From a virus: 64,000 nt of DNA. Below are positions 2,333 to 26,249 of the stretch, one piece after another. The notes beneath the pieces were generated by a model. The model saw only the letters and a list, made by a program, of their open reading frames with translations. It searched no databases and was not told the DNA's origin. Positions within the stretch are counted from its first letter, which is position 1, and every line of letters begins with the position of its first letter. The DNA is taken from positions 1 through 64,000 of the IMG/VR virus record IMGVR_UViG_3300045988_181536, one strand, 5' to 3'. Made by a program: the position numbers and the translations under genes.

Positions 2333-2860
2333 TCTTTATTTACAGATACTACTACCGCAGTTAGTATTGCTACTTTAATTGTATTCATCTTAGGCGTAAT
2401 TTATATAAGCTTGCCTTGCGTTTCAAAAGATACGCCTATTTATAAATTGATTAAATATATTTTAACTTTTATATGGAACAATGTGTTTTGTAAAATTGTT
2501 CCAGGGTTAAAACCTTACACGCCTGCTTTGGATAATAAACAATCCTTGGCTGAAGAATCTGGAGATTCTTCTATAAAATCCATTTTGGAAGATAAAGCAT
2601 TTATTCTGGAATTGCAGAAAGTTTATAAAGACGACGTTGCCATAAAAGATTTAATTAAATCTAAAATAAGCAATGTTGTTGCAGAATCTATACAAGTAGT
2701 TAGGGAAAATTACGGAGCTATAGCAAAAAAAGTATCAGTGTATTTTGATATTAAAAAAGAATCTGAAACTTCTGTTTATTTTGACTATGACGAAGGAGTT
2801 TTATTTGACAAAGATTCTTTAGGAACAATAAAAATTAAAAACAATGATTCGAATAAATAA
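2309..2860 (+). CDS. hypothetical membrane protein (one N-terminal TM helix)
   Basis: 183-aa ORF. Hydrophobic AVSIATLIVFILGVIYISL near the N-terminus. Its start codon lies in the loop of the hairpin above. Confidence 0.45.
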   Translation: MDQNLADFSLFTDTTTAVSIATLIVFILGVIYISLPCVSKDTPIYKLIKYILTFIWNNVFCKIVPGLKPYTPALDNKQSLAEESGDSSIKSILEDKAFILELQKVYKDDVAIKDLIKSKISNVVAESIQVVRENYGAIAKKVSVYFDIKKESETSVYFDYDEGVLFDKDSLGTIKIKNNDSNK

Positions 2861-3611
2861 CTTTAGAAAATTTGCATCTGCTGCTTCCAAACCTTATACC
2901 TATGCGGATATGGTCAAGGATTTACAGTCTTATGAAGGATGGGGTAAGCGCAATAACGATGAGATTTATATGGATACAAAGGATACCAAGGACAAACATA
3001 TTCCGACAATGCCTGGGGGCGTTAAACTTTATCCATTTGTAGAACAGTATCTTAGGAAGAATTTAAAATATACCGGAGATTTAAAAGTAGGTTCTAAAAT
3101 TCCAAGAAACATTTCAAGGCAGCTGCAAGAATGGTATTTACAGAATCATGTTGGCGTTCGTAATCTGGAAGGTTTTAATAAGTTGTCTGAAAACGCTAAA
3201 AATCATTTATTGCAGTTAGGCTTTAATGCTAATCTTCCCAATTGGCCCAATTTTAGAGAAGCTCTTGCAGCAGGCAATAAGGCGGAAATAATTAAGCATT
3301 TAAGAGACTCTAATGTTTGGAGAAATGAGCAGGAAAGGTTTCAAAAGGGAGAAAAATTTACGCCGAGATGGACGAATACAATTAACGCTTTAGAAAAGGA
3401 ATTTGGATTAGCTCCAGCAACTGTTGCAGTTACGGACAACGATGCAAATAATAAATTATCCAAGCGTCCGTTACCTAATAAAGGCATCGCCGCAAGTCCT
3501 CAACAACAATCCAAAGAAACAAATAGTTGGGTTCATCCGGAAACAGGGGAAATTTGGACGCCCGAAAAACTGACGAACGCAGTAAAATCTGCTCCAGTAA
3601 TAGAGATATGA
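2844..3611 (+). CDS. putative lysozyme-like protein (T4-lysozyme / GH24-like fold) carrying the N-terminal NNFRKFAS motif
   Basis: MIRINNFRKFAS at residues 4-12. YEGWGKRNNDEIYMDTKD has T4L-like E-x8-D-x5-T catalytic spacing. LSENAKNHLLQLGFNANL and ALAAGNKAEIIKHLRDSNVWRNEQERFQ resemble the T4L C-terminal lobe (NMVFQMG ... AAVNLAKSRWYNQTPNRA). Confidence 0.45.
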   Translation: MIRINNFRKFASAASKPYTYADMVKDLQSYEGWGKRNNDEIYMDTKDTKDKHIPTMPGGVKLYPFVEQYLRKNLKYTGDLKVGSKIPRNISRQLQEWYLQNHVGVRNLEGFNKLSENAKNHLLQLGFNANLPNWPNFREALAAGNKAEIIKHLRDSNVWRNEQERFQKGEKFTPRWTNTINALEKEFGLAPATVAVTDNDANNKLSKRPLPNKGIAASPQQQSKETNSWVHPETGEIWTPEKLTNAVKSAPVIEI

Positions 3612-5451: not shown

Positions 5452-6414
5452 ATGTCAGGCATAAAAACGTTATTTTCGTGGGTTAAAAATAAGTTTAAAA
5501 AGAATCGTAGAAGTGAATCTACGCCTTCTGAGAAGTTAACTGCTTTATTTAAATCAAAATCAGGTTCTTCAAAATTATTGGGTTGTAAACCCGACCTACC
5601 TGATGAGCGTGACCATATCAAACTTGGATCATCTATTTATCAAAATACCGTAGATAGCGTTAAGGATTTTTCTTTAAAAAAGTATGCGCCGCCTGTGCAA
5701 AATCAAAAAAATACATCGGCATGCGGGGGTTTTGCAGCATCTGCGGCTGTTTTTATTTTGCGCAATAAAATGTTAAATATGGTGCAGCCTGGTAATTCGG
5801 ATAAAGATGTAACTGGGAATTTTTTACTCTCACCTTTATATATTTATTATAATGCAAGGTTTGTAGACTTTTTATTTGATGATAAATTTTACGGCAAGGT
5901 TAGTTCTCCGCTTCCGGATTGCGGAGTTACACTTAGAAGCTTAATGAAAGCTTTAAAAAAATACGGTGTAGTTCCGGAAATCGTAATGCCATTTTATAAG
6001 TTTACACCGGATAGCAATCCGCCTGGAGCTATTGATCCTGCAAAGAATTTTAAAATAAAAGAATATTTAAGGATTTCAATGGAAGCTGATCCGGAAGAAA
6101 TCTGTAAAAATGTGTTGGTTGCTGAGCATCTTCCTATTATTGCAGGTTTATATCTTTATAAGGAACAAATGGATAATTTGGATTACTATGGATATTTGGA
6201 ACCTTGTAAGGATATCAAAGATGCTGAATTAATTGGAGGGCATGCGGTTTGTATTACCGGATTTAAACAAAAGAACGGTCAAACCTATTTTGAATTTTTG
6301 AATAGTTGGGGTACATCAACAGGGGATTTTGGATATGGTTATTTTCCTGCTTCGTTTTTGTCGGATAAAAATTATGTAATGGACCTTTGGACCTTTGATA
6401 AAAGTTATTTCTAA
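5452..6414 (+). CDS. papain-family (C1A) cysteine peptidase
   Basis: VQNQKNTSACGGFAASAAVF matches the papain VKNQGSCGSCWAFSAV block, with the oxyanion Gln and the nucleophile Cys at nt 5722..5724. IGGHAVCITGF matches the DHAVAAVGY His block (His at nt 6241..6243). LNSWGTSTGDFGYGYF matches the NSWGTGWGENGY Asn block. SD ggacggag lies upstream. Confidence 0.75.
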   Translation: MSGIKTLFSWVKNKFKKNRRSESTPSEKLTALFKSKSGSSKLLGCKPDLPDERDHIKLGSSIYQNTVDSVKDFSLKKYAPPVQNQKNTSACGGFAASAAVFILRNKMLNMVQPGNSDKDVTGNFLLSPLYIYYNARFVDFLFDDKFYGKVSSPLPDCGVTLRSLMKALKKYGVVPEIVMPFYKFTPDSNPPGAIDPAKNFKIKEYLRISMEADPEEICKNVLVAEHLPIIAGLYLYKEQMDNLDYYGYLEPCKDIKDAELIGGHAVCITGFKQKNGQTYFEFLNSWGTSTGDFGYGYFPASFLSDKNYVMDLWTFDKSYF

Positions 6415-6960: not shown

Positions 6961-7212
6961 ATGACGGAAGATCAAAAAGATAAACTTTATGCTTCTAAAG
7001 GAATCACAATTCCCGCTGGAATGTCTGCATTTGGACCAAGCACGGAAGAATGGATGCAAATGAGTGGAATAGGAACTTTATTTCACAATTTTGTAAATCC
7101 TTCAAATGCAAAATCCGAAGAAGCAAATAAAGTAGTGGAAGAGAGAACTGTGAATAATACGGATAATCCTAAACGTAAATTTTTGTTTAATGTAAGACTA
7201 TCTAAAAGTTAG
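6961..7212 (+). CDS. hypothetical protein
   Basis: 83-aa ORF starting 1 nt after the upstream stop. Confidence 0.4.
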   Translation: MTEDQKDKLYASKGITIPAGMSAFGPSTEEWMQMSGIGTLFHNFVNPSNAKSEEANKVVEERTVNNTDNPKRKFLFNVRLSKS

Positions 7213-7221
7213 TTATCGACA

Positions 7222-7246
7222 AGCACACATAAAGTGTGCTAATTTT
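7222..7246 (+). terminator. weak hairpin (agcacac ataaa gtgtgct) followed by aatttt
   Basis: 7-bp stem read directly, located after the 6961..7212 stop. Confidence 0.3.
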
Positions 7247-7254
7247 AAATAATA

Positions 7255-7755
7255 ATGAATCGCCCTGTAGAAATATCAACATCTCCTACGGAATCATTGC
7301 TTAATCACGGAGATGTATTTGAAACCGAGGATCAAATTGCTTTAAAACTTTCTTCAATTGAAGAATTAACTATACCTTCATTTGAAGTCAGTTCTGAGGC
7401 TGAGACAATGATGGAACAAATGGACGATTTAACTCCTAGAGATAGATATGTTTTAACCACCCTGGATCTAATGCGTCAAAAGATGGATTGGATGATTCCC
7501 AGATTAAAAAACATATCTCGAGAAGTTAGGAAAACAAATGGCACATGCATCCAGTTAAAAACTTGGAAGCACAGTGTGGAAAATGATATAGATGAAACTA
7601 TTAAATTTTCCAAAAAACATAAAGCTGATATGGCTAAAGAAGATGCCTTAAAATCCTTTTTTAAAAATACAGCTATATTTTTAATTGGTATTTTAGGCGG
7701 TATTGGAGGTACAATTACAATTGCTTCAGAATTTTTTAGTTTGATCAAGAATTGA
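7255..7755 (+). CDS. hypothetical protein with C-terminal glycine-zipper TM segment
   Basis: 166 aa. The C-terminus is AIFLIGILGGIGGTITIASEFFSL. Confidence 0.45.
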   Translation: MNRPVEISTSPTESLLNHGDVFETEDQIALKLSSIEELTIPSFEVSSEAETMMEQMDDLTPRDRYVLTTLDLMRQKMDWMIPRLKNISREVRKTNGTCIQLKTWKHSVENDIDETIKFSKKHKADMAKEDALKSFFKNTAIFLIGILGGIGGTITIASEFFSLIKN

Positions 7756-7756
7756 T

Positions 7757-8086
7757 ATGTCTTCAAGCGGATCTACAACAACTTTAGCATCCTGTCAAAA
7801 TGACAGGATAGTTTATCCTTCGGGATATATTAAGTCATCTGCGTCTGCGGATGGTCAAATGACATTATCCACAGATGGCAATGGCAACCCGTTAACCAAT
7901 ATTGAACTGTCAGCAACTAACTCAATTAGTTTAAATGGACCTGTAAAGGTGATAAAGATGAATGTGTTTAATTCAAATAAACAAATTGTTGCTAATACAT
8001 TTGTGTATTTAATTTTTGAACAAACAGATGGACTAATTACACCATCTTATTTAACTCAAGAAGAATGGGACGCGTATAATGCATAA
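7757..8086 (+). CDS. hypothetical protein
   Basis: 109-aa ORF adjacent to its neighbours, Ser/Thr-rich. Confidence 0.4.
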   Translation: MSSSGSTTTLASCQNDRIVYPSGYIKSSASADGQMTLSTDGNGNPLTNIELSATNSISLNGPVKVIKMNVFNSNKQIVANTFVYLIFEQTDGLITPSYLTQEEWDAYNA

Positions 8087-8957: not shown

Positions 8958-9698
8958 ATGATAAATAAAATTCTTATCTCTTGTATTGCGGCATGTGCTG
9001 CTTTAATCATTCCTGGCGTTGTAAATGCCAAGAATCTATCCGAGCTGTCTGCTGAGTTTGGAGCTATACATGCAAAAGGAGTGGAGGCAAATAATTATGC
9101 TTATATTAAAGCTAATTTAAAAGATTGTATTGCTGCTTTTGATGAGTGGAAAGTTTCAGAAGAGGCAAAGGGTGTATCATATCCTGAAGCAACTACGAAA
9201 CTTTTTAGCTATTTAATTACTATTGACGACGGTAAGAATTGTCCTGTCTCTGCTTCGCCAGAGATTTTCACGAAATTAAGCGTTTGGAACTTAAAGGAAG
9301 TAACCGAGGTAGAAAATCCCACATTTTATCAAGAGTTAAAATCCAATGATTATAAAATTAATGGCGTTAAATTAAATGATAATCAAATAGTTAATGCTAC
9401 AATACGCTTTAGGGATTGGGACACTTTCAAGTCTATGCTCAATACTGATGCAGGACAAGCTGCTTTAAAATATGATAGATTTACACGTGCCGCATATGTT
9501 AATGCATTAATAACAAAATGGATGACCCTCTCTACAGCTTCAGACATCAGCAAAGCAATATCTGACTGCGCAGAACTGCAAGGCACTTTTGTAATTCTGG
9601 GAGTACAAACGAATGATGAAGCATTTGGCAAGCTTACGCAAATATCCCAGATTCTTTCCCGCAAACTTTTAGCTGCTCAAGCCGGAAATCTAAAATAA
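8958..9698 (+). CDS. secreted protein (signal peptide VNA|KN)
   Basis: MINKILISCIAACAALIIPGVVNAKNL; 246 aa. Confidence 0.45.
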   Translation: MINKILISCIAACAALIIPGVVNAKNLSELSAEFGAIHAKGVEANNYAYIKANLKDCIAAFDEWKVSEEAKGVSYPEATTKLFSYLITIDDGKNCPVSASPEIFTKLSVWNLKEVTEVENPTFYQELKSNDYKINGVKLNDNQIVNATIRFRDWDTFKSMLNTDAGQAALKYDRFTRAAYVNALITKWMTLSTASDISKAISDCAELQGTFVILGVQTNDEAFGKLTQISQILSRKLLAAQAGNLK

Positions 9699-9825: not shown

Positions 9826-10431
9826 ATGCCTGGCTCAAATACATACTGCAGGGTAACTGCCAAATTATTCACTGAGTTTGCTTATTATTCTCCCGTTTAT
9901 GCTTCTCCACAAGCAGGATTGGAAGATGAAAAGTATCTGGATTTATCGTTTAATGTTTCAGGGGATGATAATACTATTTATGGATTAGTTACACATCCGA
10001 TTACTACGGTTAATGAGGTTTATGACGGAACTTCGGATGCCACAGGGTTAAAAGCTTCGCTTTATCGTTATACTACAATACAGCAATTAGATGAAGATGG
10101 GAACGTGGCTTCAATTAATACTTGGATGCCCGTGGGCGAAGAAATAGATGTTACTGCAGGCACTCCATTTAAGTTTGAACATTTATTTGCCGCAATTTAT
10201 AAACTAGTCGTTACAGGTACAGCGGAAAATTATGCTGTAAATGTATCGTATCAGTATGAGCCAATGAAGGCTGTTATGCTAAATGAGGTTAAATACACGA
10301 ATCCTCAAAGGTATTACGCAGAGCCGAATTATACAATACAATCCAACTCAATAAACAATATTGGAAATTTTAATACAACAGCTGTTGACAGTGTATCTGG
10401 AAATTCAGTAGATTTTGCGCCGAACGTTTAA
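9826..10431 (+). CDS. hypothetical protein (beta-rich)
   Basis: 201-aa ORF, the first gene after the terminator. No recognisable motif. Confidence 0.45.
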   Translation: MPGSNTYCRVTAKLFTEFAYYSPVYASPQAGLEDEKYLDLSFNVSGDDNTIYGLVTHPITTVNEVYDGTSDATGLKASLYRYTTIQQLDEDGNVASINTWMPVGEEIDVTAGTPFKFEHLFAAIYKLVVTGTAENYAVNVSYQYEPMKAVMLNEVKYTNPQRYYAEPNYTIQSNSINNIGNFNTTAVDSVSGNSVDFAPNV

Positions 10432-10446
10432 CAGCAACGCTTTACT

Positions 10447-12723
10447 GTGAAGGCAATTCAATATCTTATTAACTCCGTATTACCTGAGGATATTAGGGAC
10501 TACACTCGTACATATGACGCCAAGTCTATGAACGAGTTGCAGTCTGCTATAGCTGAAAAATATCCGGAACGTTATAGGGAATTAATGGATAAAATTATGG
10601 ATATTGCGCGTAAGTCTGTTTATTACTCGGGACAGACTTTGCGGCTTTCCGATTTTAAACCTCCGTTTGATAAAGATGTGGCATTAGAAGAAATGCACAA
10701 CGAGGTGCAGTATCTTCGTGACAATATTAAAGACGAAGAAAAAAAGAACAAAGCTATAATGGACGTATATGAAAGGTATGCTACAAAATTGGAAAAGGAT
10801 ACCTTAAATGCGGCTAAAACAAATCGCAATAATTTATACAATTCCGTATCTTCAGGCGCCAGAGGTTCTCCGTTCCAGTTAAAAGCTTTGATAACAACTC
10901 CGGCTTTGTACACTGATTATAAAGGCAGAACAATTCCTTATTTTGTTAAGCATAGTTTTGGAGAAGGTTTATCTATTCCTGAATATTTGGCGAGTACATA
11001 TGGAACACGCGCAGCAACAATTGCCATAAAAAAGAGTACAGCAAAGTTTGGCGGCTGGGGTAAAAGTTTATTTCGCCCGGTATCCAATATGATGATAACC
11101 TCAAAAAAAGATACGTCAAACAACGGTATTGATTTAGATATTGATGACGCATCTTTATATGGCAGAGTATTGGCGCGTCCGGTTGCCGGATATGCTGAAG
11201 GCACAATTGTTGACAGGGATGTATTAAATTCTTTAAAAAGCAAGGGCGTAAAAACTGTTATTGTTCATTCCCCTATTGCTACAGTATCTGCAGAGGGTAT
11301 TTCAGCTGAAGCTTTTGGACTAGATTACAATAAACGTTTGCCAAAGGTTGGAGATTTTCACGCAGGTATTACTGCTGCTACAGCAACTAGTGAACCTGCC
11401 ATTCAAGGTGGTTTGTGTCTACATTACACAACTGAAATTATGTTATGGGATGGAACAAAAAAACAAATTCGAGATATTGTTCCGGGACGTGACATTGTTA
11501 AAAGCTTAGATACAAATGGCAATATAATTGCAGCTAAAGTGCTTAATAAATTTAAGCAAGGTTGCAGGAACGTTTATGAAGTTATATTTGAACACAACGA
11601 TATTGCGTATTCTGTTATTTGTACTCGTAACCATAAATTTAAAATTTATGGGGAAATGTTAGATCTACCTGTAAAAGAAATTTATAAAAAATCTTTATGT
11701 TTTGATGTTCTTGGAGATCCTGCACGTATTCTTGATATAAGATTCTTGGGTAATAGGGTGTGTTTTGACATAGAAGTTGATAGTCCGACACATTTGTTTG
11801 TTTTAGCAAACGGTCTTATATCTCATAATTCGTCTAAGCATGAAGCTGGTGGATTTAAAGGAAAGAAGCGCACATTCTCCGGATTTGATTATATCAATCA
11901 ATTTTTTGAATCTCCTGAGCAGTATAAATCGAAAGCTCCGCTTGCAGAATCAGACGGTAGGGTAGAAAAAATATATGAAGCCCCACAAGGGGGACATTAT
12001 ATTGTTGTAAATGGTGTAGAACACTATGTTGATCCGGATTCTAATATTGAAGTACAAGAAGGTCAAGAGGTTGAACAAGGAGATCAGTTGGCGGATGGAC
12101 TCGTAGATTTAGGAGATGTATTGCGTTTGAGAGGTCTTGGGGAAGGTAGAAAGGCATTTGTAAACATAGGCAAACAGTTATTAGATGACAGTAATGCCAC
12201 CGCACATAAGCGTAATTTAGAGGTGTTGGCCCGAGGCATTGTAGATAAAGTAGAGATTACGGATCCTGATGGCGTGGGAGATTATTTGCCTGGGGATATT
12301 GTATCTTATAATGCATTGGAAGCTTCTTATAAACCCGATAAGGATTCAAAAGAAATAAATATATCCTCTAAAAATAAAGATTTAAAAGGCAAATACTTAC
12401 AGAAACCAGTATTGCATTATACTATCGGTACCAAGTTAACCAATAAAATGATTGATCACATCAGAAATACCGGCATAACGGATTCTGTTCTTGTATCGGA
12501 TAATGAACCTGGATTTACGCCAATTTATGTGAGATTAAGAGAAGCTCCAAACAAGGGTAATAGAAATTTCTTAGAAAGGGCAACAGCCCCTTATCAGGCA
12601 AAGAATTATGTTGAGTCAGCAGTCAGAGGTTATAAAACTAATATCAAAAGTAATTTAGACCCGTTTGTTAGAATGTCCATGCCTGATTTTGCCGAAAACA
12701 CTGATATAACAGGAAGATTTTAA
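10447..12723 (+). CDS. multisubunit RNA polymerase beta-prime subunit, C-terminal fragment (split rpoC-like), interrupted by a mini-intein in the trigger loop
   Basis: GTG start 15 nt after the upstream stop. [81 protein letters not shown] matches the bacterial beta-prime block [82 protein letters not shown][intein]SKHEAGG matches the trigger loop [32 protein letters not shown] matches DILRLRGV. There is no NADFDGD motif, so the N-terminal half must be encoded elsewhere. Confidence 0.8.
   Translation: [758 protein letters not shown]
11416..11829 (+). mobile_element. mini-intein (138 aa, Hint domain only, no homing endonuclease) in the RNAP beta-prime trigger loop
   Basis: Begins with Cys ([13 protein letters not shown], block A). 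It has TRNH (block B T-x-x-H) and ends ...[12 protein letters not shown] followed by Ser as the +1 extein residue. Removing it restores a contiguous trigger-loop sequence. Confidence 0.7.
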
Positions 12724-12725
12724 TT

Positions 12726-13889
12726 ATGTTAATTACGAAAAACTTTCAAAAATTTGCTTCAAATATTGCAGTAAAAAACAGTTCTTTTAAGTTTGCTAAC
12801 TTTAAGAAGTTTGCTTCAAATCCCCAAGTTGCTTCAGAAGTTCGTCAAGGTGTTCGTGACGAATATGGAAAATCTTTTAATGATAATAATCAGTGGACAG
12901 ATTTCAGGCTGGATATGAATAGAGGCACAATGGCCCAGGTAAGGAGATTAGGGGCTTACGCCAAAGGAGCAATTATGGGGCCAACTAACATCCAAAGACA
13001 ACGGAATAACATCCAAGCACAACAGCAACAGTTGAAGCCTCAAAACAACACTACAAATAATAATACCAACAATAATAAACAGGAAAAAGGTTGGTTTGGC
13101 AAACTTTGGGATAAAAGTAAGAATTTTGTTAAAGGTATGCATGAAAGCGGCATGCAAGAAGCGGGTAACTATACCAAAGCCGTAGTTGATAGTGATTTGG
13201 GTTCATTGGATCAAGTTTCTCGAGGTTTGTCAGATCGAGCCGGAGCTGAAGCGGTTAAAGCTCAACAAATCGCAAGAAGTTATATAGCACAAGGAAAACC
13301 GATTCCCAAAGATGTTGCGGATCGCATGGCTAAGGCTCGTGCTTACGATTCTGCTGCAGGTCAAGTGATGAAATCTACATCTTACACTTCACAAGATTTA
13401 GAGAAGAATATGCGTAACGAATTAGAGAGGTATCAAAATGATGTAGAAGAAAATATGTATAACTCTCGAAACACACAGGCGCGTGTATCTCAAACTTTAG
13501 AAGATAAAGCGTATAATGATTTTAAAAATCTTAGTGGATGGGATAAAGTTAAAGTCATATTCCAAAAATTTTTATCAGGTATGGGAGTAAAAATCCCTAA
13601 AGATTGGGCATATAACAATTTTATAAATCGTCAAAGAAATGAGGCGCAAGATTACATAAGAAATAAAAGTAATCTTGGTAATCAAATGTTGGGAGAATAT
13701 GCTGCTGCTTCACAATATGACTTAAATGATCCTCGTCAACGTGCTGAATTTTATCAAATAAACTCTCAACGGATGGATCAACTAAATAATCGTTATAAAA
13801 ATGTTAAAGTAAATCCCGAGGTATCAGCTTACATAGCGCAACAACAAGCAAAACGCAACCCTGTAAATTCTAATGCTCAAGCGGTTTAA
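12726..13889 (+). CDS. hypothetical virion-type protein with three tandem N-terminal NFxKFAS/N motifs and a Q/N-rich low-complexity region
   Basis: MLITKNFQKFASNIAVKNSSFKFANFKKFASNPQ, then NIQRQRNNIQAQQQQLKPQNNTTNNNTNNNKQ. 387 aa. Start is 2 nt after the rpoC-like stop. Confidence 0.5.
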   Translation: MLITKNFQKFASNIAVKNSSFKFANFKKFASNPQVASEVRQGVRDEYGKSFNDNNQWTDFRLDMNRGTMAQVRRLGAYAKGAIMGPTNIQRQRNNIQAQQQQLKPQNNTTNNNTNNNKQEKGWFGKLWDKSKNFVKGMHESGMQEAGNYTKAVVDSDLGSLDQVSRGLSDRAGAEAVKAQQIARSYIAQGKPIPKDVADRMAKARAYDSAAGQVMKSTSYTSQDLEKNMRNELERYQNDVEENMYNSRNTQARVSQTLEDKAYNDFKNLSGWDKVKVIFQKFLSGMGVKIPKDWAYNNFINRQRNEAQDYIRNKSNLGNQMLGEYAAASQYDLNDPRQRAEFYQINSQRMDQLNNRYKNVKVNPEVSAYIAQQQAKRNPVNSNAQAV

Positions 13890-13890
13890 T

Positions 13891-14295
13891 ATGTTTAATA
13901 TATCTAATTTTAAAAAATTTGCTGCCAGCCCTGATTGGATTAAAAACCAATTAACGGAATCAATAACAAATCAAGCAGATCAAACAAATATTGATGAAAA
14001 GGATACCACGGTTAATTCAAGCAACTACGATGCTAACATAACTTCGGAAGATAGGGAATCTGGGGAGTATGATTCTCTAATGAATAACAATAAAGATTTC
14101 TTGAAAAACATATTAAGTGACTATGGAAAGAAAAATAATGTGTTGGAAGATCTAAATAAAAAGGTATCCATATTAGAATCTCAGGGTCAAAAGGGAAAAG
14201 CTAATGCTTTAAGAACAGCTATAGGCAGATCCAGTGACTCTAAATTTACAGAAGATATAGACAGATTTTCAAAAGATATTGCGAACCAACTATAA
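13891..14295 (+). CDS. hypothetical protein with N-terminal NFKKFAAS motif
   Basis: The track gives 13873. I chose the in-frame ATG at 13891, which starts 1 nt after the upstream TAA and yields MFNISNFKKFAAS with the motif placed as in the paralogous N-termini. Confidence 0.45.
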   Translation: MFNISNFKKFAASPDWIKNQLTESITNQADQTNIDEKDTTVNSSNYDANITSEDRESGEYDSLMNNNKDFLKNILSDYGKKNNVLEDLNKKVSILESQGQKGKANALRTAIGRSSDSKFTEDIDRFSKDIANQL

Positions 14296-14359: not shown

Positions 14360-16783
14360 ATGCTTTCACTAAAGAACTATGATTTTAAAAAGGCTGCTTC
14401 CTCAGCTTTAAAAGAAACAGATGCTGAAATAGCTTTTTATAGGGCGTCTTCTACGGTAATGGAAGACAAAGCCTCGCCTTTTTTTACGAATGACTACTAT
14501 TTAGGTTTCGAGATTGTAAAAACGAATGACTCGTTTACAAAAATGGTAGGCATATATGTGTTTAGAGTTAACAAATATATATTTTATGCGCCTGTATTCT
14601 ACGTTAATGGCCAGATAAAAGGCACGGAGTTCTTATATAATGTAGAGGAGAAAAAGTTTGTTTATCTCAGTCCTGAATGGTGTGATTATTTCATAGGTCT
14701 TTATGAAGAGGAGGCTGATGGATTTCCAGTTGATATGGCAGAGGCCAATCAAGGCAGGCAAGATATTGAAATGATGCGTATTGCCACGCCATTATATAAG
14801 ACATCTTCTTTAAAGAAGTTTGCTTCGGATTTAAATCTATCCGCAGACGAAAGAGAGTTTGGTTCTTTTTCGGATATGTACGATAATGTTTTTGAAACAT
14901 TTGTTAATTCCCCTGATTCAGATTACAGCCCGTTGCATGTGTTTTTAAAATCTGCGGGTATAAATGCTTGGAATAAATTATCCGATGCTTTAAAAACAGA
15001 TAGGGAATTTGCTAATAATGTGGTAGGTCTTTGTGACGAGCAGGATTATATTCCTATGGATGTTTTATCCGAGGCAAAACAAAATGTTAAACATGCTGCG
15101 GAGAACCCAAAGAAAGATTTATTAATTTTGCATAAAGGCATATTTAATAAAAATACCGTTAAGACTGCTGCTGAACAAATCGCCAATGGTTATTCATTTG
15201 AGGATAACCGAGATGAAGATCAGCTTAATATGATATATGATGCAGATCCGGATCAGAATTGGGCAGGTATTTCCACCAATGCTCCGTCTGTTTATGATAT
15301 TTTAACTACTGACGGGTCTACGGTTAGGTGTGTTGCTATTGTGGGAAACTCAGATTATGGGAAAACTCCAGCCCTTTTAGTTTCGATAGATCCGGAACGC
15401 AAAGGAATAATTCAGTATTATGACATTAATAGTCCCGAAGAATTATATAATCAAGAGGATGAAAATGTTAAAGCCCCAGGCGTACACGATCCTGTAGTAG
15501 GTAACTTTAGAAATATTTTAGCGATAGAGGAAAAGGATTCGGATAAACGAGAGGAAGATTTAACCAAGGTGTTAAAAGAAAAACCTGAAGTTGGAAAAAT
15601 TTATGGCATTTGGGATCCTGAATATTGTTATATATCTGATGAAGCTTTTTATGTTGGAGAAGTAAAAGCTAATGCTGATGATCCTAAGGGATACACTGTA
15701 AAAGTTTATCCAATTCAAGGTTATGATAAGTTTAAGCCTTGGGAAGCTTTGGTTCAAGGAACGGATGAAATTATTCAAGTAAATCCTTCAGCTCAATATC
15801 CTATGTATGATTTAAAGGTGTTTCAGCCAAGCATACGTTGGATAGAGTTGCCTACTGAAACGATTGATTTGGCTAAAAAGATGAAGGCTGAATTTAAAAT
15901 TGATGATGCTTTTTCATTTAAGAAAAAGGATTATCGCATTGACATAATTCAAGCCGAATGGGTTCCAGGTAACTGGGCAAATCTATATGCTAATACTTTG
16001 GTCAAACATTCCAGCGTAGGACATGGATATGTCAATTACAATGGCGACGGCAGTTATAACTTAAACATAGCAGGATTTAAATTTGCAAACGTAAATGTAA
16101 TGGGTGCTATGGCGTTGCTTATGGGGAATGTAAATATTTCCGAAGAAACTGCCGATTATATAATTAAGCATGCAAATGATAATCAAAGGCGTGGCGAGGA
16201 TTATAAATTCCTATTTAAAAAATTTGCGGATAGAATAATTTTAAATCCTGATCCGGACTTTTTTGAAGGGTTTGATTCCGATTTAAATATACCATATGAA
16301 ATTCCGGAAACTCGCGCTTTGATGACGGATGAAACTTCTTATGCTCCGCCTGCTCCACGATATGGTGATATGATGACGCCAACCATGATGGGGGTAGCAA
16401 AAGCAACCGAAGGAGTATCCAGAGAAGACCCCAATGATTTCTTACAAACAGCCACTCCGAATATGTTGGCAGAGTTTGCGGAACGCAGTGGACAACGCAG
16501 CGTATTTGAGCATGGCATTGTTAGCGTGTTATCCCAGGTTTCAGATGCACAAATGTATATTAACGAATTTTTACCTTCGTTAAGGGATGGCATGGATAAA
16601 CTTGCTAGGCTGTTATTCTTAATAGTAATAAGCCCGCAAAACTTTGTGAAATACTACGGTAGTGATGATATTAAAGGATTGGAAAATTCTGTTTCAGCAT
16701 GCTTTAAACAGCTATCAGAATTAACATTAGATTTAATACAAAAGACTTCCGGTGTATCTACAAATACTACCAATAAAGTTTAA
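14360..16783 (+). CDS. large hypothetical virion-type protein (807 aa) with N-terminal NYDFKKAAS motif and two internal KKFA(S/D) copies
   Basis: MLSLKNYDFKKAAS at the N-terminus. SSLKKFASD is encoded at nt 14808..14834 and FLFKKFADR at nt 16209..16235. No catalytic motif recognised. GNSDYGKT resembles a Walker A but is mid-protein. Confidence 0.5.
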   Translation: MLSLKNYDFKKAASSALKETDAEIAFYRASSTVMEDKASPFFTNDYYLGFEIVKTNDSFTKMVGIYVFRVNKYIFYAPVFYVNGQIKGTEFLYNVEEKKFVYLSPEWCDYFIGLYEEEADGFPVDMAEANQGRQDIEMMRIATPLYKTSSLKKFASDLNLSADEREFGSFSDMYDNVFETFVNSPDSDYSPLHVFLKSAGINAWNKLSDALKTDREFANNVVGLCDEQDYIPMDVLSEAKQNVKHAAENPKKDLLILHKGIFNKNTVKTAAEQIANGYSFEDNRDEDQLNMIYDADPDQNWAGISTNAPSVYDILTTDGSTVRCVAIVGNSDYGKTPALLVSIDPERKGIIQYYDINSPEELYNQEDENVKAPGVHDPVVGNFRNILAIEEKDSDKREEDLTKVLKEKPEVGKIYGIWDPEYCYISDEAFYVGEVKANADDPKGYTVKVYPIQGYDKFKPWEALVQGTDEIIQVNPSAQYPMYDLKVFQPSIRWIELPTETIDLAKKMKAEFKIDDAFSFKKKDYRIDIIQAEWVPGNWANLYANTLVKHSSVGHGYVNYNGDGSYNLNIAGFKFANVNVMGAMALLMGNVNISEETADYIIKHANDNQRRGEDYKFLFKKFADRIILNPDPDFFEGFDSDLNIPYEIPETRALMTDETSYAPPAPRYGDMMTPTMMGVAKATEGVSREDPNDFLQTATPNMLAEFAERSGQRSVFEHGIVSVLSQVSDAQMYINEFLPSLRDGMDKLARLLFLIVISPQNFVKYYGSDDIKGLENSVSACFKQLSELTLDLIQKTSGVSTNTTNKV

Positions 16784-20399: not shown

Positions 20400-22037
20400 A
20401 TGAAAAAACTAATTTATCCAGATTCTAATTCCGAGTTATTTTCCTCATTGGATGGAGTGATGGTATCCGTAATTAGAGATACTAATTTTTACTCTAATAT
20501 TAAAAAGGCTTCTTCAAGTGTCATATCAAGGCAGCTTTTAGAAGATTGTAAGCCGGATAAAGATCATTTTTTAATTCATATAACGGCTATTGGGGACGAT
20601 GAGACTTATGGTTTTAATAAAAACGCAGATGGTTTTCCAAAAAAAGCTAATGAAAAATATTATAAAACTTTTGAAACCAATGCGAATTTATTTAGAGAAC
20701 ATAATTCTTCTTCGCCTAAAAATCGCATAGGTATCATCAAGGCGGCTGCATATAATAAAGATATGCATCGCATTGAGGTCGTAGCATGGGCGAATATTAA
20801 GAAAGCTGCAGCTGAATATGAAGCAGCATTAGCAGGGAAGCCTTTAAGTTCAAGCATGGGCGCAAGCGTCCCTTGTGACAGGGACAATATTTCTGGCAAG
20901 CTTTCCAAGAACCCGTCCGAATATGAACCATGGATGAAAAGATTTCCTGGTAAGTATATAGAAGAATGGAATGGCAAACCGATAAATAAATGGGCTTATG
21001 TTCATAATGATACGCCAACTTTCTTTGATTTATCCATAGTGGCAAAACCTGCGGACCGCATTGCCGACTATTTGGAATACAGATTTAATGATGCAGTTAA
21101 AGACGGCATTTTAAAATCGGCATGTGAAAATGATGCTTGCGTACCTTCCGCATTATTGCCGGAAATGATGGGCTATGACTTATTAAAATTTGGTTCGGAT
21201 ATTATACGCACGAAGGGCGATTTAACTTCATATTTTGCAAGCGAAGATAAAGCTAAAATATTAGAGAAATTAGCCTCAATCGAAAAAGAATTTATAGATA
21301 TTAATTCTTCAAGTGATAAAGCAAACGATCCCAGGGTTGCATACATTAAAAACGCTAAATATGTAAACTTTGACAAAAGTTATACTTTATCTAAAGATGA
21401 TATATCGGAATTGAGGAATTTACGTCCTGAAACTTTATTTTTTGAACTGCAAAAGCGTGCCAGCGTGCTTTCATTTAAACCTTTTGTAGATTTAATTTTT
21501 GAAGGCAATCCTAAGTTTGCTTCGGAAGATCATAAGAATAAAATTGTTAAATATGCGGAAATAGCAATTGTTCCTACAGTATTTTCAGAAGTGAAAAATC
21601 TTATTGAAAGCGGAGATGTCTTACCTTGCGGAGATGGCGTGGATGAATTATTTGAAGCAGGTGATCCCATAGAAGCGATGTATGATCTAAATAATACTGA
21701 TCCTGTGCAAAAAATCATGGACGGAATTGAAGACCAGCTTTCTTATAAAGAGGAGAAAAAGCAACCGAGAATAATTCAAATTACAATAACTCAACATGTT
21801 CCTGATGAAAATATTCAAAAAGAAGATTGCGGAAAGTTTTTTAAAATTAAAACGGCATCGTTTAATCCAAATATAGAGCTTTCAAAAGATGATTTAACAG
21901 TTGCCAAGCAATTAGCATTTACGTATGCATTTTATAAAGTTGCGGCTTTGCATGATATGGCTACATATCATTTTAAAAATAATTTACCGGAGAGTGTTTA
22001 TGTAGACGCAATATCGCAGAATTGTCTTGCGATTTAG
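20400..22037 (+). CDS. hypothetical head-module protein (545 aa)
   Basis: SD ggag lies 9 nt upstream. The position between the portal-size gene and the acidic scaffold-like gene is compatible with a prohead protease or core protein, but no catalytic motif was recognised. Confidence 0.45.
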   Translation: MKKLIYPDSNSELFSSLDGVMVSVIRDTNFYSNIKKASSSVISRQLLEDCKPDKDHFLIHITAIGDDETYGFNKNADGFPKKANEKYYKTFETNANLFREHNSSSPKNRIGIIKAAAYNKDMHRIEVVAWANIKKAAAEYEAALAGKPLSSSMGASVPCDRDNISGKLSKNPSEYEPWMKRFPGKYIEEWNGKPINKWAYVHNDTPTFFDLSIVAKPADRIADYLEYRFNDAVKDGILKSACENDACVPSALLPEMMGYDLLKFGSDIIRTKGDLTSYFASEDKAKILEKLASIEKEFIDINSSSDKANDPRVAYIKNAKYVNFDKSYTLSKDDISELRNLRPETLFFELQKRASVLSFKPFVDLIFEGNPKFASEDHKNKIVKYAEIAIVPTVFSEVKNLIESGDVLPCGDGVDELFEAGDPIEAMYDLNNTDPVQKIMDGIEDQLSYKEEKKQPRIIQITITQHVPDENIQKEDCGKFFKIKTASFNPNIELSKDDLTVAKQLAFTYAFYKVAALHDMATYHFKNNLPESVYVDAISQNCLAI

Positions 22038-22119: not shown

Positions 22120-23649
22120 ATGAGACAAAATTCTATTAAGAGAGAAAATCTCAAAGCACTAATGGACAAGCTTAACCAGGCTTCTAAATTTGCTTCCGAA
22201 TCTAATGAACCAAAAGATCCGGATGAAACTCAGCCTCAAGAACCTTGCCCGAAATCTACAGTTGAGCCTACCGGCGGAGTTAATCCAAAGGAACAACTGG
22301 AGCCAAAGGAAACTAACGCCGCTCAGCCTGCGGAAGTAAAACCGGAAAATGGCGGCACAGGTTTAGAGGAGGAAGAAAAGAACGTAGTTGCAAAGGCGGC
22401 TAATGTGACTAAGAAACTTTTAGATTTTGCAAAGGTTCAACCTAAACAGTCGCAGCCTGCTGAAAAAACTGCGGCTTCTTCCGAAGACGATTTAGTTAAG
22501 AATATAGTTATGAGCTATGACATTATGTCCAAGGTTGCTCATGTACTTACGGAAACTGAGGAAGGACGCATTGCCTTGCAGCATGCCATTGATTCTGAGA
22601 AGGGCAAGCAAATGCAGTTGGCTACGCTTAATGAAATAAAATACGCTTCCGAACAAGTACAGGCTTTAGAAGAACTGAAATTCGCTGCACAGCGTGAAGC
22701 TGAAATGGTTAAGCATGCAAGTTTAGGCATCCTTTCCGCAATACGCAAGCTTCCCGAAAAGGAACAGAAGAAACAATTTAAGATTGCATCAAAGTACCTG
22801 CGTGCGCAAGAAATCCATCGTCAAAATATGGAACAGTTTGGGGATAATGAAGCTCTGAAATACGCTTATGCTCAAGGTGCTGCGGATGCTCAAGCCATTA
22901 ATGATACAGCTGCAGTCGAAGGTGCTGATCCTACCGTGGAAGGTCTTGATGCTTTTGGTACGGCACTTGATGAAATGATTGCCAGTAATGAAATAACGCC
23001 CGAACAAGCACAGATGTTAGCACAAATGGCTGTTCAAGCTGCTCAAACTGACAATAACGAGGAGCTTTCACCTGAAGAAGCGCAAATGTTCCTTGAACAG
23101 GCTATTCAGCAAGGACTGGTTGATCCCAAAGTTGCCGAAGCTATTATGCTTAGCATAATGGGTGGCGAAGGCGGAGCACCTGCCCCTGAAGTTCCGGCTG
23201 CTGCTCCAGTTGCTCCAGCTGCCGTAGCTACACCTACAGACACAGCAGTTGCAGATCAAACAGTTGCTGAACCCGTTGAAAAACAGGCTTCTGAGAAGGT
23301 GCGTTCTGTAGCGGAAAAATACATCAAACTTGCTTATGCTACTAAAGTAGCTGAGGAAGGTTCTGCTGAGGTCATGCTATCACCTGCCGATGTAGCTGCT
23401 GAAATTGATTTAGCTGTTACTGCGGGCGAACTGGATCCGGATCTTGCTGAAAAGATCAAGGCTGTAATTGAAACGGCTGCTGCAGAAAACAGCGCTGATG
23501 TTCCTTGTCAAGAAAAAGAAGTTCAAGTAATTGAAAATAAGGACGACGACAAGGAAGATGATGACGATGACGAAGACGATGATGATGATTTTGATGAAAA
23601 AGAAATCATTGAAGAGTCTATCAAAGAAGCTTCGGAAATTGTAAAGTAA
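22120..23649 (+). CDS. acidic low-complexity protein (scaffold-like or internal head protein candidate)
   Basis: 509 aa. ASKFASE near the N-terminus. PA-rich APAPEVPAAAPVAPAAVATP. C-terminal poly-acidic DDDKEDDDDDEDDDDDFDEKE, with GAY codon repeats around 23530..23600. Confidence 0.45.
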   Translation: MRQNSIKRENLKALMDKLNQASKFASESNEPKDPDETQPQEPCPKSTVEPTGGVNPKEQLEPKETNAAQPAEVKPENGGTGLEEEEKNVVAKAANVTKKLLDFAKVQPKQSQPAEKTAASSEDDLVKNIVMSYDIMSKVAHVLTETEEGRIALQHAIDSEKGKQMQLATLNEIKYASEQVQALEELKFAAQREAEMVKHASLGILSAIRKLPEKEQKKQFKIASKYLRAQEIHRQNMEQFGDNEALKYAYAQGAADAQAINDTAAVEGADPTVEGLDAFGTALDEMIASNEITPEQAQMLAQMAVQAAQTDNNEELSPEEAQMFLEQAIQQGLVDPKVAEAIMLSIMGGEGGAPAPEVPAAAPVAPAAVATPTDTAVADQTVAEPVEKQASEKVRSVAEKYIKLAYATKVAEEGSAEVMLSPADVAAEIDLAVTAGELDPDLAEKIKAVIETAAAENSADVPCQEKEVQVIENKDDDKEDDDDDEDDDDDFDEKEIIEESIKEASEIVK

Positions 23650-25217: not shown

Positions 25218-26249
25218 ATGGACGACTATAAGAATATAGAGTTAAGTTTAAATGGAGTATCCGGAGACGCTTTAAATGACAGGCTTGCTCAAGAGCTTGG
25301 CAGCTGCTCGGAAGGCACTATAAAGATGGCTTCTTCAGCCGGTACTTCGTTCATCCGTAAACAGGTTTTTGAAAAGGGTTGGACCCGTCAGATTTGCCAT
25401 TTTGAAGTTCTTAATGGTTCTGGTGACAAACGTCTTGTCCCAATGTTCAATACCGACTATCCGGTTGCGATGTTCTACATAGAGCCTACAAACTATCCTG
25501 CTGCTGTGCTTCCCTTTGACCAAGGCACGCACACTCAGTACTATAGGGCAGACAAGGCTCCGATGACCTTCTTCAAGATTGCTACACCTGAGTTCCAAAA
25601 GAATCGTGTAACGCTTGATACTTATCCGTTTGATCTTCGTAAGGTTATAATGGATACCGGTCTGAAGAACATGGTTAAGACCGAAGACCTCGTTTGGTAC
25701 AACCTCTCCGACAGTGTTGCCGCTCAGAACAATGGCACATATACGTTTGCTGGCGGTATGGAGCCGTTAGTGATGAATGAAATCACTAATATCTTCACCA
25801 AGCACAGCCTGAATCATGGTGTTAACCTTATCAACAAGGTTACCTTCAGCGCTCTTGTCAACGGTCAGAAGAACAACTTCCAACAGTTCGGCGTTGATCT
25901 TACCAGCAAGGTTTTCGAAGAAGGCGCTAAAGCGTTCGACGGTAAGAATGTTTACGGTATGAAGTGGATCTCCACCTTCAAGACCGACATTGTTCCTGAC
26001 AACGTTATAATGGCCTACACTGAAGAAGACTACCTCGGTAAGTGTGCAGAGCTGTACAAGCCGGTGATGTACGTAAAGCGTGAAAAGGATCGGATATCCT
26101 GCTGCGCTGAGGAAGTTATAGGTATGCTTATTGCCAATACTTCCGGCGTTGCAAAGATTGTGCTGTACAGCGCCCAAGCCACAATGAATGCCTACCCGCA
26201 GATCAGGCCTTATCTCTCGGTTGCTGGAGGTACTAAGACTGGGGGCTAA
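25218..26249 (+). CDS. putative major capsid protein (HK97-fold size class)
   Basis: 343 aa. SD aaagga. Locally about 45-48% GC with C-ending codons in a mid-30s% GC genome, as expected of the most highly expressed gene. A strong terminator follows. Lies upstream of the sheath and tube genes. Confidence 0.45.
   Translation: MDDYKNIELSLNGVSGDALNDRLAQELGSCSEGTIKMASSAGTSFIRKQVFEKGWTRQICHFEVLNGSGDKRLVPMFNTDYPVAMFYIEPTNYPAAVLPFDQGTHTQYYRADKAPMTFFKIATPEFQKNRVTLDTYPFDLRKVIMDTGLKNMVKTEDLVWYNLSDSVAAQNNGTYTFAGGMEPLVMNEITNIFTKHSLNHGVNLINKVTFSALVNGQKNNFQQFGVDLTSKVFEEGAKAFDGKNVYGMKWISTFKTDIVPDNVIMAYTEEDYLGKCAELYKPVMYVKREKDRISCCAEEVIGMLIANTSGVAKIVLYSAQATMNAYPQIRPYLSVAGGTKTGG

Follow-up and report, generated by a model that had tools for sequence, protein, structure and literature searches.

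The window analysed here, a stretch of 64,000 nt comprising positions 1 to 64,000 of the IMG/VR virus record IMGVR_UViG_3300045988_181536, carries at positions 10,447 to 12,723 an open reading frame (ORF) predicted to encode, as a protein of its own, the C-terminal half of beta-prime from a multisubunit RNA polymerase (RNAP), with an intein inserted in its trigger loop. The locus raises the question of how a phage could use half of a catalytic subunit that is itself interrupted at a catalytic element, and to which kind of phage polymerase such a subunit belongs. That the protein is a beta-prime is not new in itself, as it is already annotated as such in nr; what is new is the architecture, the load of inteins at catalytic sites and a candidate split intein encoded upstream. 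The explanation proposed here, which as a whole is held with good confidence, is that the gene encodes an intein-interrupted beta-prime C-half of a bacterial-type phage RNAP, assembled with partners encoded upstream and probably packaged.

Homology of the predicted protein to bacterial beta-prime

Bacterial beta-prime is the best match of the phage protein in both sequence and fold. When the spliced sequence, from which the intein had been removed in silico, was compared with the PDB using phmmer, Streptomyces beta-prime (8dy7_D, residues 666-1170) matched extein residues 7-488 with an E value of 2.3e-31, and the end points of the match to E. coli beta-prime were 98-330 versus 691-939. The SGARGS and trigger-loop blocks both align to RpoC in this comparison; it was on their alignment that an earlier note on this DNA had beforehand let the assignment stand or fall. 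The phage protein is colinear with Streptomyces 8dy7_D and E. coli RpoC from about E. coli residue 572 onward; it differs from them in comprising only the C-terminal half, in lacking the SI3 insertion and in being interrupted by an intein, and it shares no more than about 23-25% identity with any of the bacterial subunits. An AlphaFold2 (AF2) model of the full precursor was obtained with a predicted local distance difference test (pLDDT) score of 84 and a predicted template-modelling score (pTM) of 0.70. In a Foldseek search against the PDB, the best 50 matches were all bacterial beta-prime subunits (E 1e-25 to 1e-22, TMq 0.51-0.58).

The alignment is unbroken after intein removal. At the junction, ...EPAIQGGL-SSKHEAGG (here and below a hyphen within a motif marks a splice point) stands opposite bacterial ...EPGTQLTM RTFH.GG; in-silico splicing yields EPAIQGGLSSKHEAGG, opposite EPGTQLTMRTFH.GG, and H465 of the precursor corresponds to E. 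coli H936.

All of the blocks listed in the earlier note, namely SGARGS, a bridge-proximal block, the trigger loop and a DILRLRG-like block, could be located in the ORF (Table 1). Residues S136, G137, A138 and G140 of SGARGS are invariant in the family alignment, and a long helix spans residues 177-212 of the AF2 model, in the bridge-helix region. The catalytic NADFDGD half, which the note had reported missing, is indeed absent from the ORF, and neither NADFDGD or DFDGD, nor a beta motif, nor a second beta-prime copy was found anywhere in the 64-kb window. Pfam and PHROGs searches detected no polymerase domain in the upstream ORFs (8958-9698, 9826-10431 and others) or in any large ORF of the window, so no contiguous rpoC extends across the upstream region.

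The preceding ORF ends with TAA at position 10431, and the GTG of the beta-prime ORF lies 15 nt beyond it, exactly as the earlier note had described. This GTG is considered the true start because the family consensus N-terminus, MKAIQLLVNSxLPEDLRDY, begins precisely there; in a 91-member alignment K2 and A3 are at least 90% conserved, while L12 and P13 are invariant. The Joint Genome Institute (JGI) gene call has 731 amino acids (aa) instead of 758, starting from M28, the first ATG, and is too short, since the conserved family N-terminus precedes M28. Readthrough from the 201-aa upstream ORF, which is in the same frame with one TAA between, was rejected for the reason that the family N-terminus starts at the GTG. 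Shine-Dalgarno-like leaders precede only 10 of the 45 window genes even in a lenient test, and the missing Shine-Dalgarno sequence before the GTG is therefore uninformative.

The earlier note had placed the start near E. coli residue 650; alignment to Acinetobacter beta-prime moves it to about 572-576. Residue 5 aligns with residue 574 of the Acinetobacter protein, in which NADFDGD lies at 456 and MRTFH at 930, corresponding to the E. coli numbering minus 2. The underlying match, labelled 'Acinetobacter phage MD-2021a' (CAKLQF020000005.1, L003), was rejected as a phage relative: it carries rplKAJL-rpoBC, being a mislabelled bacterial chromosome fragment within the phage collection, and served for residue numbering only.

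An intein at the tip of the trigger loop

By its use of the word extein the earlier note merely hinted at an intein; a 138-aa class-1 mini-intein is present. It starts with CLHYTT (Cys1 being C324) and ends with HN (N461), followed by Ser (S462) at position +1. The fused Npu DnaE intein matches the 138-aa segment end to end (phmmer, 8.8e-11), with the block-B Thr and His, the block-F Asp and His and the terminal Asn all aligned. The Pfam Hint match to the segment is weak. The AF2 model is beta-rich in this region, and fold matches in BFVD are intein-bearing phage terminases, over about 150 columns with a root-mean-square deviation of 2.4-4 Å. The GC content of the intein is 31%, compared with 38-39% in the exteins.

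The insertion point lies between the equivalents of M932 and R933, three residues ahead of the catalytic H936, a placement derived from the E. coli end points together with the Acinetobacter map. The roles of the trigger-loop residues, including the catalytic one of H936, are those known from the E. coli literature.

The closest intein-less relative (P0003, 619 aa, 79% identical) has an empty site with the identical junction, GGL-SSKH, and most family members are likewise intein-less with the same flanks. Insertions are carried by 22 of the top 120 family clusters, mostly in the trigger loop, where they occupy at least four neighbouring points (after Q320, L323, N/S324 and H/T); the trigger-loop inteins of these relatives are either mini forms or longer elements (about 290-400 aa) in which LAGLIDADG and Hom_end_hint domains are present. 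Further insertions were found in the bridge helix (about residues 195-203), and one near residue 266. Because insertions occur at several neighbouring points in relatives, the trigger loop of this family can be regarded as an intein hot spot, and the copy in the window is, judging from its sequence, a mini-intein that has lost its endonuclease. The literature searched describes no intein in the trigger-loop tip or in a phage multisubunit RNAP, an absence limited to that literature; inteins have been recorded in the RNA polymerases of archaea and of algal chloroplasts (PMC4760082).

The polymerase family and its cultured relatives

A search with the spliced sequence recovered a family of at least 454 protein clusters, nearly all of them stand-alone proteins of 610-625 aa and mostly from phage contigs of 140-220 kb; several are named beta-prime by JGI. 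The family alignment has 47 invariant positions, with conserved length and N-terminus. When the beta-prime protein was compared by tblastn with 50,697 phage records (E <1e-5), the only clear cultured relatives were the Vibrio phages D181, D148 and D69 (31% identity) and gp216 of Salmonella phage Arash (28%). Arash gp216 (606 aa) and D181 VPHD181_0271 (609 aa) start at the same beta-prime position as the window protein (620 aa after splicing) and are 28-31% identical to it across the whole extein; their genes lack an intein, unlike the window gene. The order of beta-prime C, structural genes and capsid gene is common to the window, Arash and D181, as determined by tblastn.

In Arash the partner of the beta-prime C-half is gp206 (1525 aa), whose Pfam domains (Rpb2_2/3/6 and Rpb1_1/2) identify it as beta fused to beta-prime N. 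The corresponding protein of D181 is split in two (0263/0267) by a homing-endonuclease gene. With a profile of the beta N-terminal part (N-part), 1979 representatives were collected at 50% clustering; the E value was <1e-30 for 893 of these, and most are proteins of 1450-2600 aa. The enzyme of the window phage is thus named an Arash/D181-type, bacterial-like phage RNAP with a beta::beta-prime-N fusion partner, a family that in the literature searched is described nowhere beyond the Arash annotation.

Upstream partner genes and a candidate split intein

The source of the window is a 174-kb human-gut phage contig. The earlier note had located the remaining subunits outside the window and had advised looking for beta-prime N and beta fragments elsewhere in the genome; the motifs of both occur in one 1126-aa fusion protein, beta-C::beta-prime-N, encoded about 7 kb before the window begins. 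It aligns with residues 493-1439 of Arash gp206 and carries the GDK...GNK and DFDGD active-site motifs. The first of these is itself interrupted by a cis mini-intein (Table 1); in the sister contigs L012 and L013 the GDKM site is occupied by a larger version with LAGLIDADG, and L014 carries further insertions.

The 1126-aa protein ends with ...GADFDGD-CQWGHVFLLIKS, only 12 residues past the Mg-binding motif, whereas D181/Arash-like relatives continue for 87-91 residues past DFDGD (ALSMYLPMTPEA...). A separate 322-aa ORF reads ...GYDLTVPGYETFINYSGVVLSN-TMNVHVPALPEAQAEIKEKLLPSKQ..., with the junction ...VVLSN-TMNVHVP... and 85 beta-prime residues after the Asn. The first 237 residues of this ORF form a HINT domain (AF2 pLDDT 83), for which the top 50 PDB fold matches are all inteins. 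The two genes together have the pattern of a split intein, in which an N-extein ORF ends in an N-fragment and a second ORF joins a C-fragment to the complementary C-extein. A 75%-identical relative has the same split arrangement with a spacer of 1 kb, as against 5.4 kb here, and CQWGHVF of the N-fragment is kept in five variants.

Stand-alone HINT ORFs of this kind form a family of 36 clusters, reaching down to 31% identity, in which QI.(T/S)DxDPRA, GYDLTV and SN-T are invariant; in other genomes no DFDGD-bearing ORF is present within 8 kb of the HINT ORF. The canonical block-B His and penultimate His are absent from the split element, TDxD and SN being invariant in the 36 members. Cis copies of the HINT element, of about 440-630 aa, are found directly after DFDGD in many fusion proteins of about 1900-2900 aa (P0252-P0390). 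Their first residue is C or S in some proteins, in others it is Q, E, D, G, A, F or Y, and one subgroup ends in Asp instead of Asn; like the missing His residues, the variable first residue is a caveat to the split-intein reading. Family proteins of 2000-2100 aa had been considered as complete beta-beta-prime fusions; for the HINT-bearing ones this was rejected, as the cis copy explains the extra length, and some proteins of this size continue with normal beta-prime sequence. The split element directly after DFDGD is regarded, on its sequence and predicted fold, as a candidate natural split intein of an atypical kind. To our knowledge, 12-13 residues would be the shortest N-fragment of any natural split intein.

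The region between the beta-prime halves (L004:3122-7005) encodes a Mom-like DUF7487 protein (478 aa), a DUF559 protein, a DNA-ligase adenylation fragment and, on the opposite strand, an IS605-type OrfB/TnpB. More TnpB copies are present farther upstream (L011:826-2085 and 7050-7856).

Proposed assembly of the polymerase

According to the explanation proposed here, the 758-aa precursor would be made and the intein would then remove itself from the trigger-loop tip through an acyl shift at Cys324, attack by Ser462 and cyclisation of Asn461. The product would be a 620-aa protein with the intact loop ...EPAIQGGL-SSKHEAGG..., and this mature beta-prime C would join partners encoded 7-17 kb upstream, outside the window, chief among them the 1126-aa beta-C::beta-prime-N fusion, together with a beta N-part that the searches described below did not locate. 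An 85-residue beta-prime segment would probably be supplied by the split intein, and the joined beta-prime N junction would read ...GADFDGD-TMNVHVPALPEAQ... The polymerase would probably be packaged, injected and used to transcribe early genes.

A broader reading, for and against which the chances appear about evenly balanced, is that this phage lineage cannot build its RNAP without protein splicing at three catalytic hot spots, namely by the cis mini-intein in beta GDKM-...GNK, the cis mini-intein at the trigger-loop tip and the split intein after DFDGD. The same reading takes the split element to be a distinct HINT family (QI.TDxDPRA ... GYDLTVPGYETF..LSN-T) that resides after DFDGD, in cis or split form, across a large family of uncultured phage RNAPs. 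If it is correct, polymerase activity would be gated by both cis- and trans-splicing, and the split element would offer a ready-made tool for peptide-to-protein ligation.

Gene neighbourhood

The coordinates of the polymerase genes, their inteins and the neighbouring genes are collected in Table 1. The beta-prime C gene stands just upstream of the structural module. The two ORFs that follow it, of 387 and 140 aa, share the N-terminal motif NFxKFA(S), which is probably what the earlier note called a candidate packaging motif; it was right about the neighbours, but the motif is absent from beta-prime itself. In its fuller form, (N/S)NFxKFA(S), the motif is duplicated in the 387-aa ORF. It is also N-terminal in the ORF at 2844-3611 and in a small ORF within 71-478, and looser K(F/M)AS variants occur near the N-termini of the ORFs at 14360-16783, 20400-22037, 22120-23649 and 25218-26249, the last being the capsid gene. 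The motif could be a propeptide, a protease site or a targeting signal. Upstream of the polymerase gene, a 320-aa ORF (5452-6414) gives weak papain-like signals (Peptidase_C1; PHROG 'peptidase', 6.5e-5), and it could encode a protease that matures the motif-bearing proteins. In a distant relative, too, a Peptidase_C1 ORF occurs close to the HINT ORF (L089:1457-2308).

All 45 of the larger ORFs in the window are on the plus strand, and the GC content of the window is 35%. The strand bias, the few Shine-Dalgarno leaders, the GC content and the human-gut origin hint at a host of Bacteroidota type. The crAss-like phages belong to the podoviruses, and their polymerase is of another type. The weak tail-sheath match in the window (E 3e-4) is also part of the case against the crAss-like Zeta group, and membership of the source phage in that group is judged unlikely. 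The Zeta group comprises intein-rich gut phages of 145-192 kb (PMC7886860).

Table 1. Location of the beta-prime gene, its parts and associated features. Plain numbers are window positions; prefixed locations are on other sequences (L004 and L011, upstream of the window; L009, relative).
Feature	Location	Strand	Remarks
Whole ORF, 758-aa precursor (beta-prime C-half and intein)	10447..12723	+	GTG start; stop 12721-12723
N-extein, residues 1-323	10447..11415	+	E. coli beta-prime ~572 to M932
SGARGS motif, residues 136-141	10852..10869	+	~E. coli beta-prime 728-733
Bridge helix, residues 174-208	10966..11070	+	Alignment to bacterial bridge helices
Trigger loop, N-terminal arm	11365..11415	+	Ends at L323, the M932 equivalent
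Class-1 mini-intein, 138 aa, residues 324-461, without endonuclease domain	11416..11829	+	Npu DnaE match
Intein block B, TRNH, residues 393-396	11623-11634	+	
Trigger loop, second half	11830..11853	+	
C-extein, residues 462-758	11830..12720	+	Starts SSKHEAGG; rest of trigger loop, DVLRLRG, C-terminal clamp region
DVLRLRG block, residues 557-563	12115..12135	+	Counterpart of E. coli DILRLRG
Two downstream ORFs (387 aa, 140 aa) with N-terminal NFxKFA(S)	12726..14295 (12726-13889, 13873-14295)	+	No Pfam/PHROG family
Major capsid protein	25218..26249	+	tblastn to Arash gp226, 3e-21; weak phrog_2522 (major head protein)
Sheath-like gene	28574-30103	+	Weak match, E 3e-4
VgrG-like gene	30723-33128	+	
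1126-aa beta-C::beta-prime-N protein	L011:9710-13090		Domains Rpb2_6, Rpb1_1, Rpb1_2
161-aa cis mini-intein (C...SGN-S) in 1126-aa ORF	L011:10775-11257		Within beta motif GDKM-(A/S)..GNK
Candidate intein N-fragment, 12-13 aa (CQWGHVF...)	L004:3052-3087		
322-aa ORF, intein-fold domain and 85 beta-prime residues	L004:8455-9423		Ends 31 nt before window position 1
Same split arrangement in a relative	L009:13079-13117 and L009:14148-15122		

Weighing of the alternatives

Several observations weigh against the proposed explanation. In Pfam searches the intein-bearing precursor stays below the gathering thresholds of both Rpb1_4 (20.4 versus 24.8 bits) and Rpb1_5 (19.6 versus 28.5 bits); this is attributed to the intein, and homologues without it carry precomputed PF04998 matches. 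The four cysteines kept in the family consensus (DCG...C..A..G.C..C.G), which are equivalent to the zinc site of bacterial beta-prime, are all lost from the window protein (residues about 219-225 and 275-292), where KKDTSNNG takes the place of the first cysteine segment. The equivalent of R933 is Ser in the window protein, in departure from bacterial beta-prime, and Ser or Asn throughout the family. A beta N-part was sought with tblastn and with a D181/Arash-type hidden Markov model against six-frame ORFs of the window and of loci L004 and L008-L014, a set that covers about 27 kb flanking the window, and only an overlap at the N-terminus of the 1126-aa protein was matched. The 5 kb downstream of the window contain small ORFs only and no beta N-part. 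A homologue search with D181_0263 reached only D181-like phages and not the beta N-part of the source phage, a degenerate-pattern scan of IMG/VR for it gave 72 environmental loci, none from the gut phage studied here, and among the top 150 matches of the profile search none was attributable to the source phage. As to the virion, the support is indirect and comes from a 28%-identical Arash homologue in a sucrose-gradient preparation that contained metabolic enzymes, and the beta-prime protein lacks the N-terminal motif of its neighbours.

The last two points bear on the alternative that survives best, namely that the gene encodes a genuine phage RNAP subunit that is not packaged and is made after infection for middle or late transcription, in the manner of a non-virion RNAP. 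The neighbours that carry the motif are putative virion proteins, from which beta-prime would then differ. Arash particles were purified by sucrose gradient only; ribonucleotide reductases and RNA ligases were among the 116 proteins detected in them, and carry-over of abundant intracellular enzymes is a possibility named by the authors themselves (PMC10585845). Against this, gp206 had the highest spectral count in the same proteome, 3516 compared with 1333 for the capsid protein, and gp216 reached 1210 (PMC10585845). In Arash and D181, for which alone among the relatives the neighbourhood was read, the polymerase genes are flanked by the portal gene on one side and the head/tail genes on the other, and beta-prime C heads the structural block here. 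Because the gene heads the structural module and because of the Arash particle proteome, a virion role is proposed; by this analogy packaging is somewhat favoured, and a polymerase confined to the infected cell is a possible but clearly less probable outcome.

A second alternative concerns the intein, which might be inactive or conditional, so that the precursor persists and the insert acts as an off-switch or as a permanent disruption of the trigger loop. From the known function of the trigger loop, an unspliced protein with an insertion at this catalytic tip should be crippled, and the intein has diverged faster than its surroundings, being 52% identical to its counterpart in the relative P0002 as against 85-89% for the exteins. 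All canonical residues are kept nevertheless (Cys1, TxxH, the block-F Asp and His, HN and the +1 Ser), and the intein-bearing allele is fixed in a 192-member cluster from many gut samples, which is hard to reconcile with a dead polymerase. An inactive intein is therefore considered improbable, and excision from the precursor is the expected course.

The earlier note had linked the gene to the phiKZ/AR9 type, a jumbo-phage family whose enzymes consist of four or five separate beta and beta-prime pieces and come in a virion and a non-virion version. In outline the note's reading holds, with a split beta-prime, a catalytic half encoded elsewhere and possibly a virion enzyme. The part of the phiKZ/AR9 claim that stands is the split site: it is the site that separates cyanobacterial rpoC1 from rpoC2 (query residue 19 is opposite RpoC2 residue 10), and the phiKZ virion RNAP (vRNAP) and non-virion RNAP (nvRNAP) share the cyanobacterial beta-prime split site (PMC7598289). 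The location among structural genes would also agree with this type, and beta-prime C subunits of phiKZ-like Erwinia phages are among the BFVD fold matches. Those matches are weak, however (E about 1e-5, TM 0.2, 12% identity, versus E 1e-25 for bacterial proteins), and the tblastn search of 50,697 phage records returned no phiKZ- or AR9-like phage at E <1e-5, yet it did return real bacterial rpoC. A beta::beta-prime-N fusion is not reported for phiKZ-like phages in PMC7598289, and only one beta-prime C copy is seen across the 64 kb of the window plus about 27 kb of flanking sequence. The family part of the claim was wrong, the protein being nearer to bacterial beta-prime, and membership in the phiKZ/AR9 type is rated slightly more doubtful still than an inactive intein. 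A captured and decaying host rpoC fragment without function, which half a gene and lost zinc-site cysteines might suggest, is effectively refuted by the at least 454 clusters, 47 invariant positions and conserved length and N-terminus of the family, and is further opposed by the existence of matching partner genes and by an identity of only about 23% to any bacterial beta-prime.

Significance of the locus

Work on phage multisubunit RNAPs has been confined almost entirely to phiKZ/AR9-like jumbo phages, and the window gene represents another lineage. The Arash/D181-type lineage is much closer to the bacterial enzymes and has its own plan, in which beta is fused to beta-prime N and beta-prime C stands apart. 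This lineage is highly abundant in metagenomes and barely studied. Inteins occupy this lineage exactly at catalytic elements, and the trigger-loop insertion would act as a natural all-or-none switch for the polymerase. If active, the candidate split intein would be directly useful in protein engineering, as its N-fragment is peptide-sized. There is also a lesson for annotation, in that an intein can drop a precursor under the Pfam thresholds and gene callers differ on the start (731 or 758 aa).

Comparison with known systems

The closest known systems are the polymerases of Arash and D181, whose partner protein fuses beta to beta-prime N, as is the case upstream of the window. In those phages this protein runs 87-90 residues past DYDGD, while that of the window phage stops after 12; the Arash beta is part of one 1525-aa protein, while the beta N-part of the window phage would be separate. 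A distance of 17 kb separates the polymerase genes of the window phage, and TnpB, Mom-like and other genes lie in the interval.

The beta-prime C subunits of phiKZ/AR9 and the RpoC2 of cyanobacteria and plastids are split at the same place, after the beta-prime double-psi beta-barrel. RpoC2 is much longer, at about 1320-1350 aa. In phiKZ-like phages the beta and beta-prime fragments are separate proteins (PMC7598289) and form two enzyme sets, whereas the window phage has the fused beta-C::beta-prime-N.

The trigger-loop intein has the HINT fold, Cys1, TxxH, HN and +1 Ser in common with class-1 mini-inteins such as those of Npu and Ssp DnaE. Like the inteins of archaeal RNA polymerases, it occupies a catalytic, highly conserved site, but it differs in its host protein, a phage beta-prime, and in its position at the trigger-loop tip.

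The candidate split intein resembles atypical split inteins such as AceL-TerL and GOS-TerL, in which the N-extein ORF likewise ends in a very short Cys-initiated fragment; natural N-fragments are listed with 25 aa (AceL-TerL) and 37 aa (GOS-TerL), and engineered S1 splits of 11 aa work (PMC11766414). As in these systems and in the 'fractured genes' reviewed previously (PMC2677866), unrelated or mobile genes lie between the halves. The element described here differs from them in its N-fragment of 12-13 aa, in having TDxD for TxxH and SN for HN, and in its host, the active-site loop of an RNAP.

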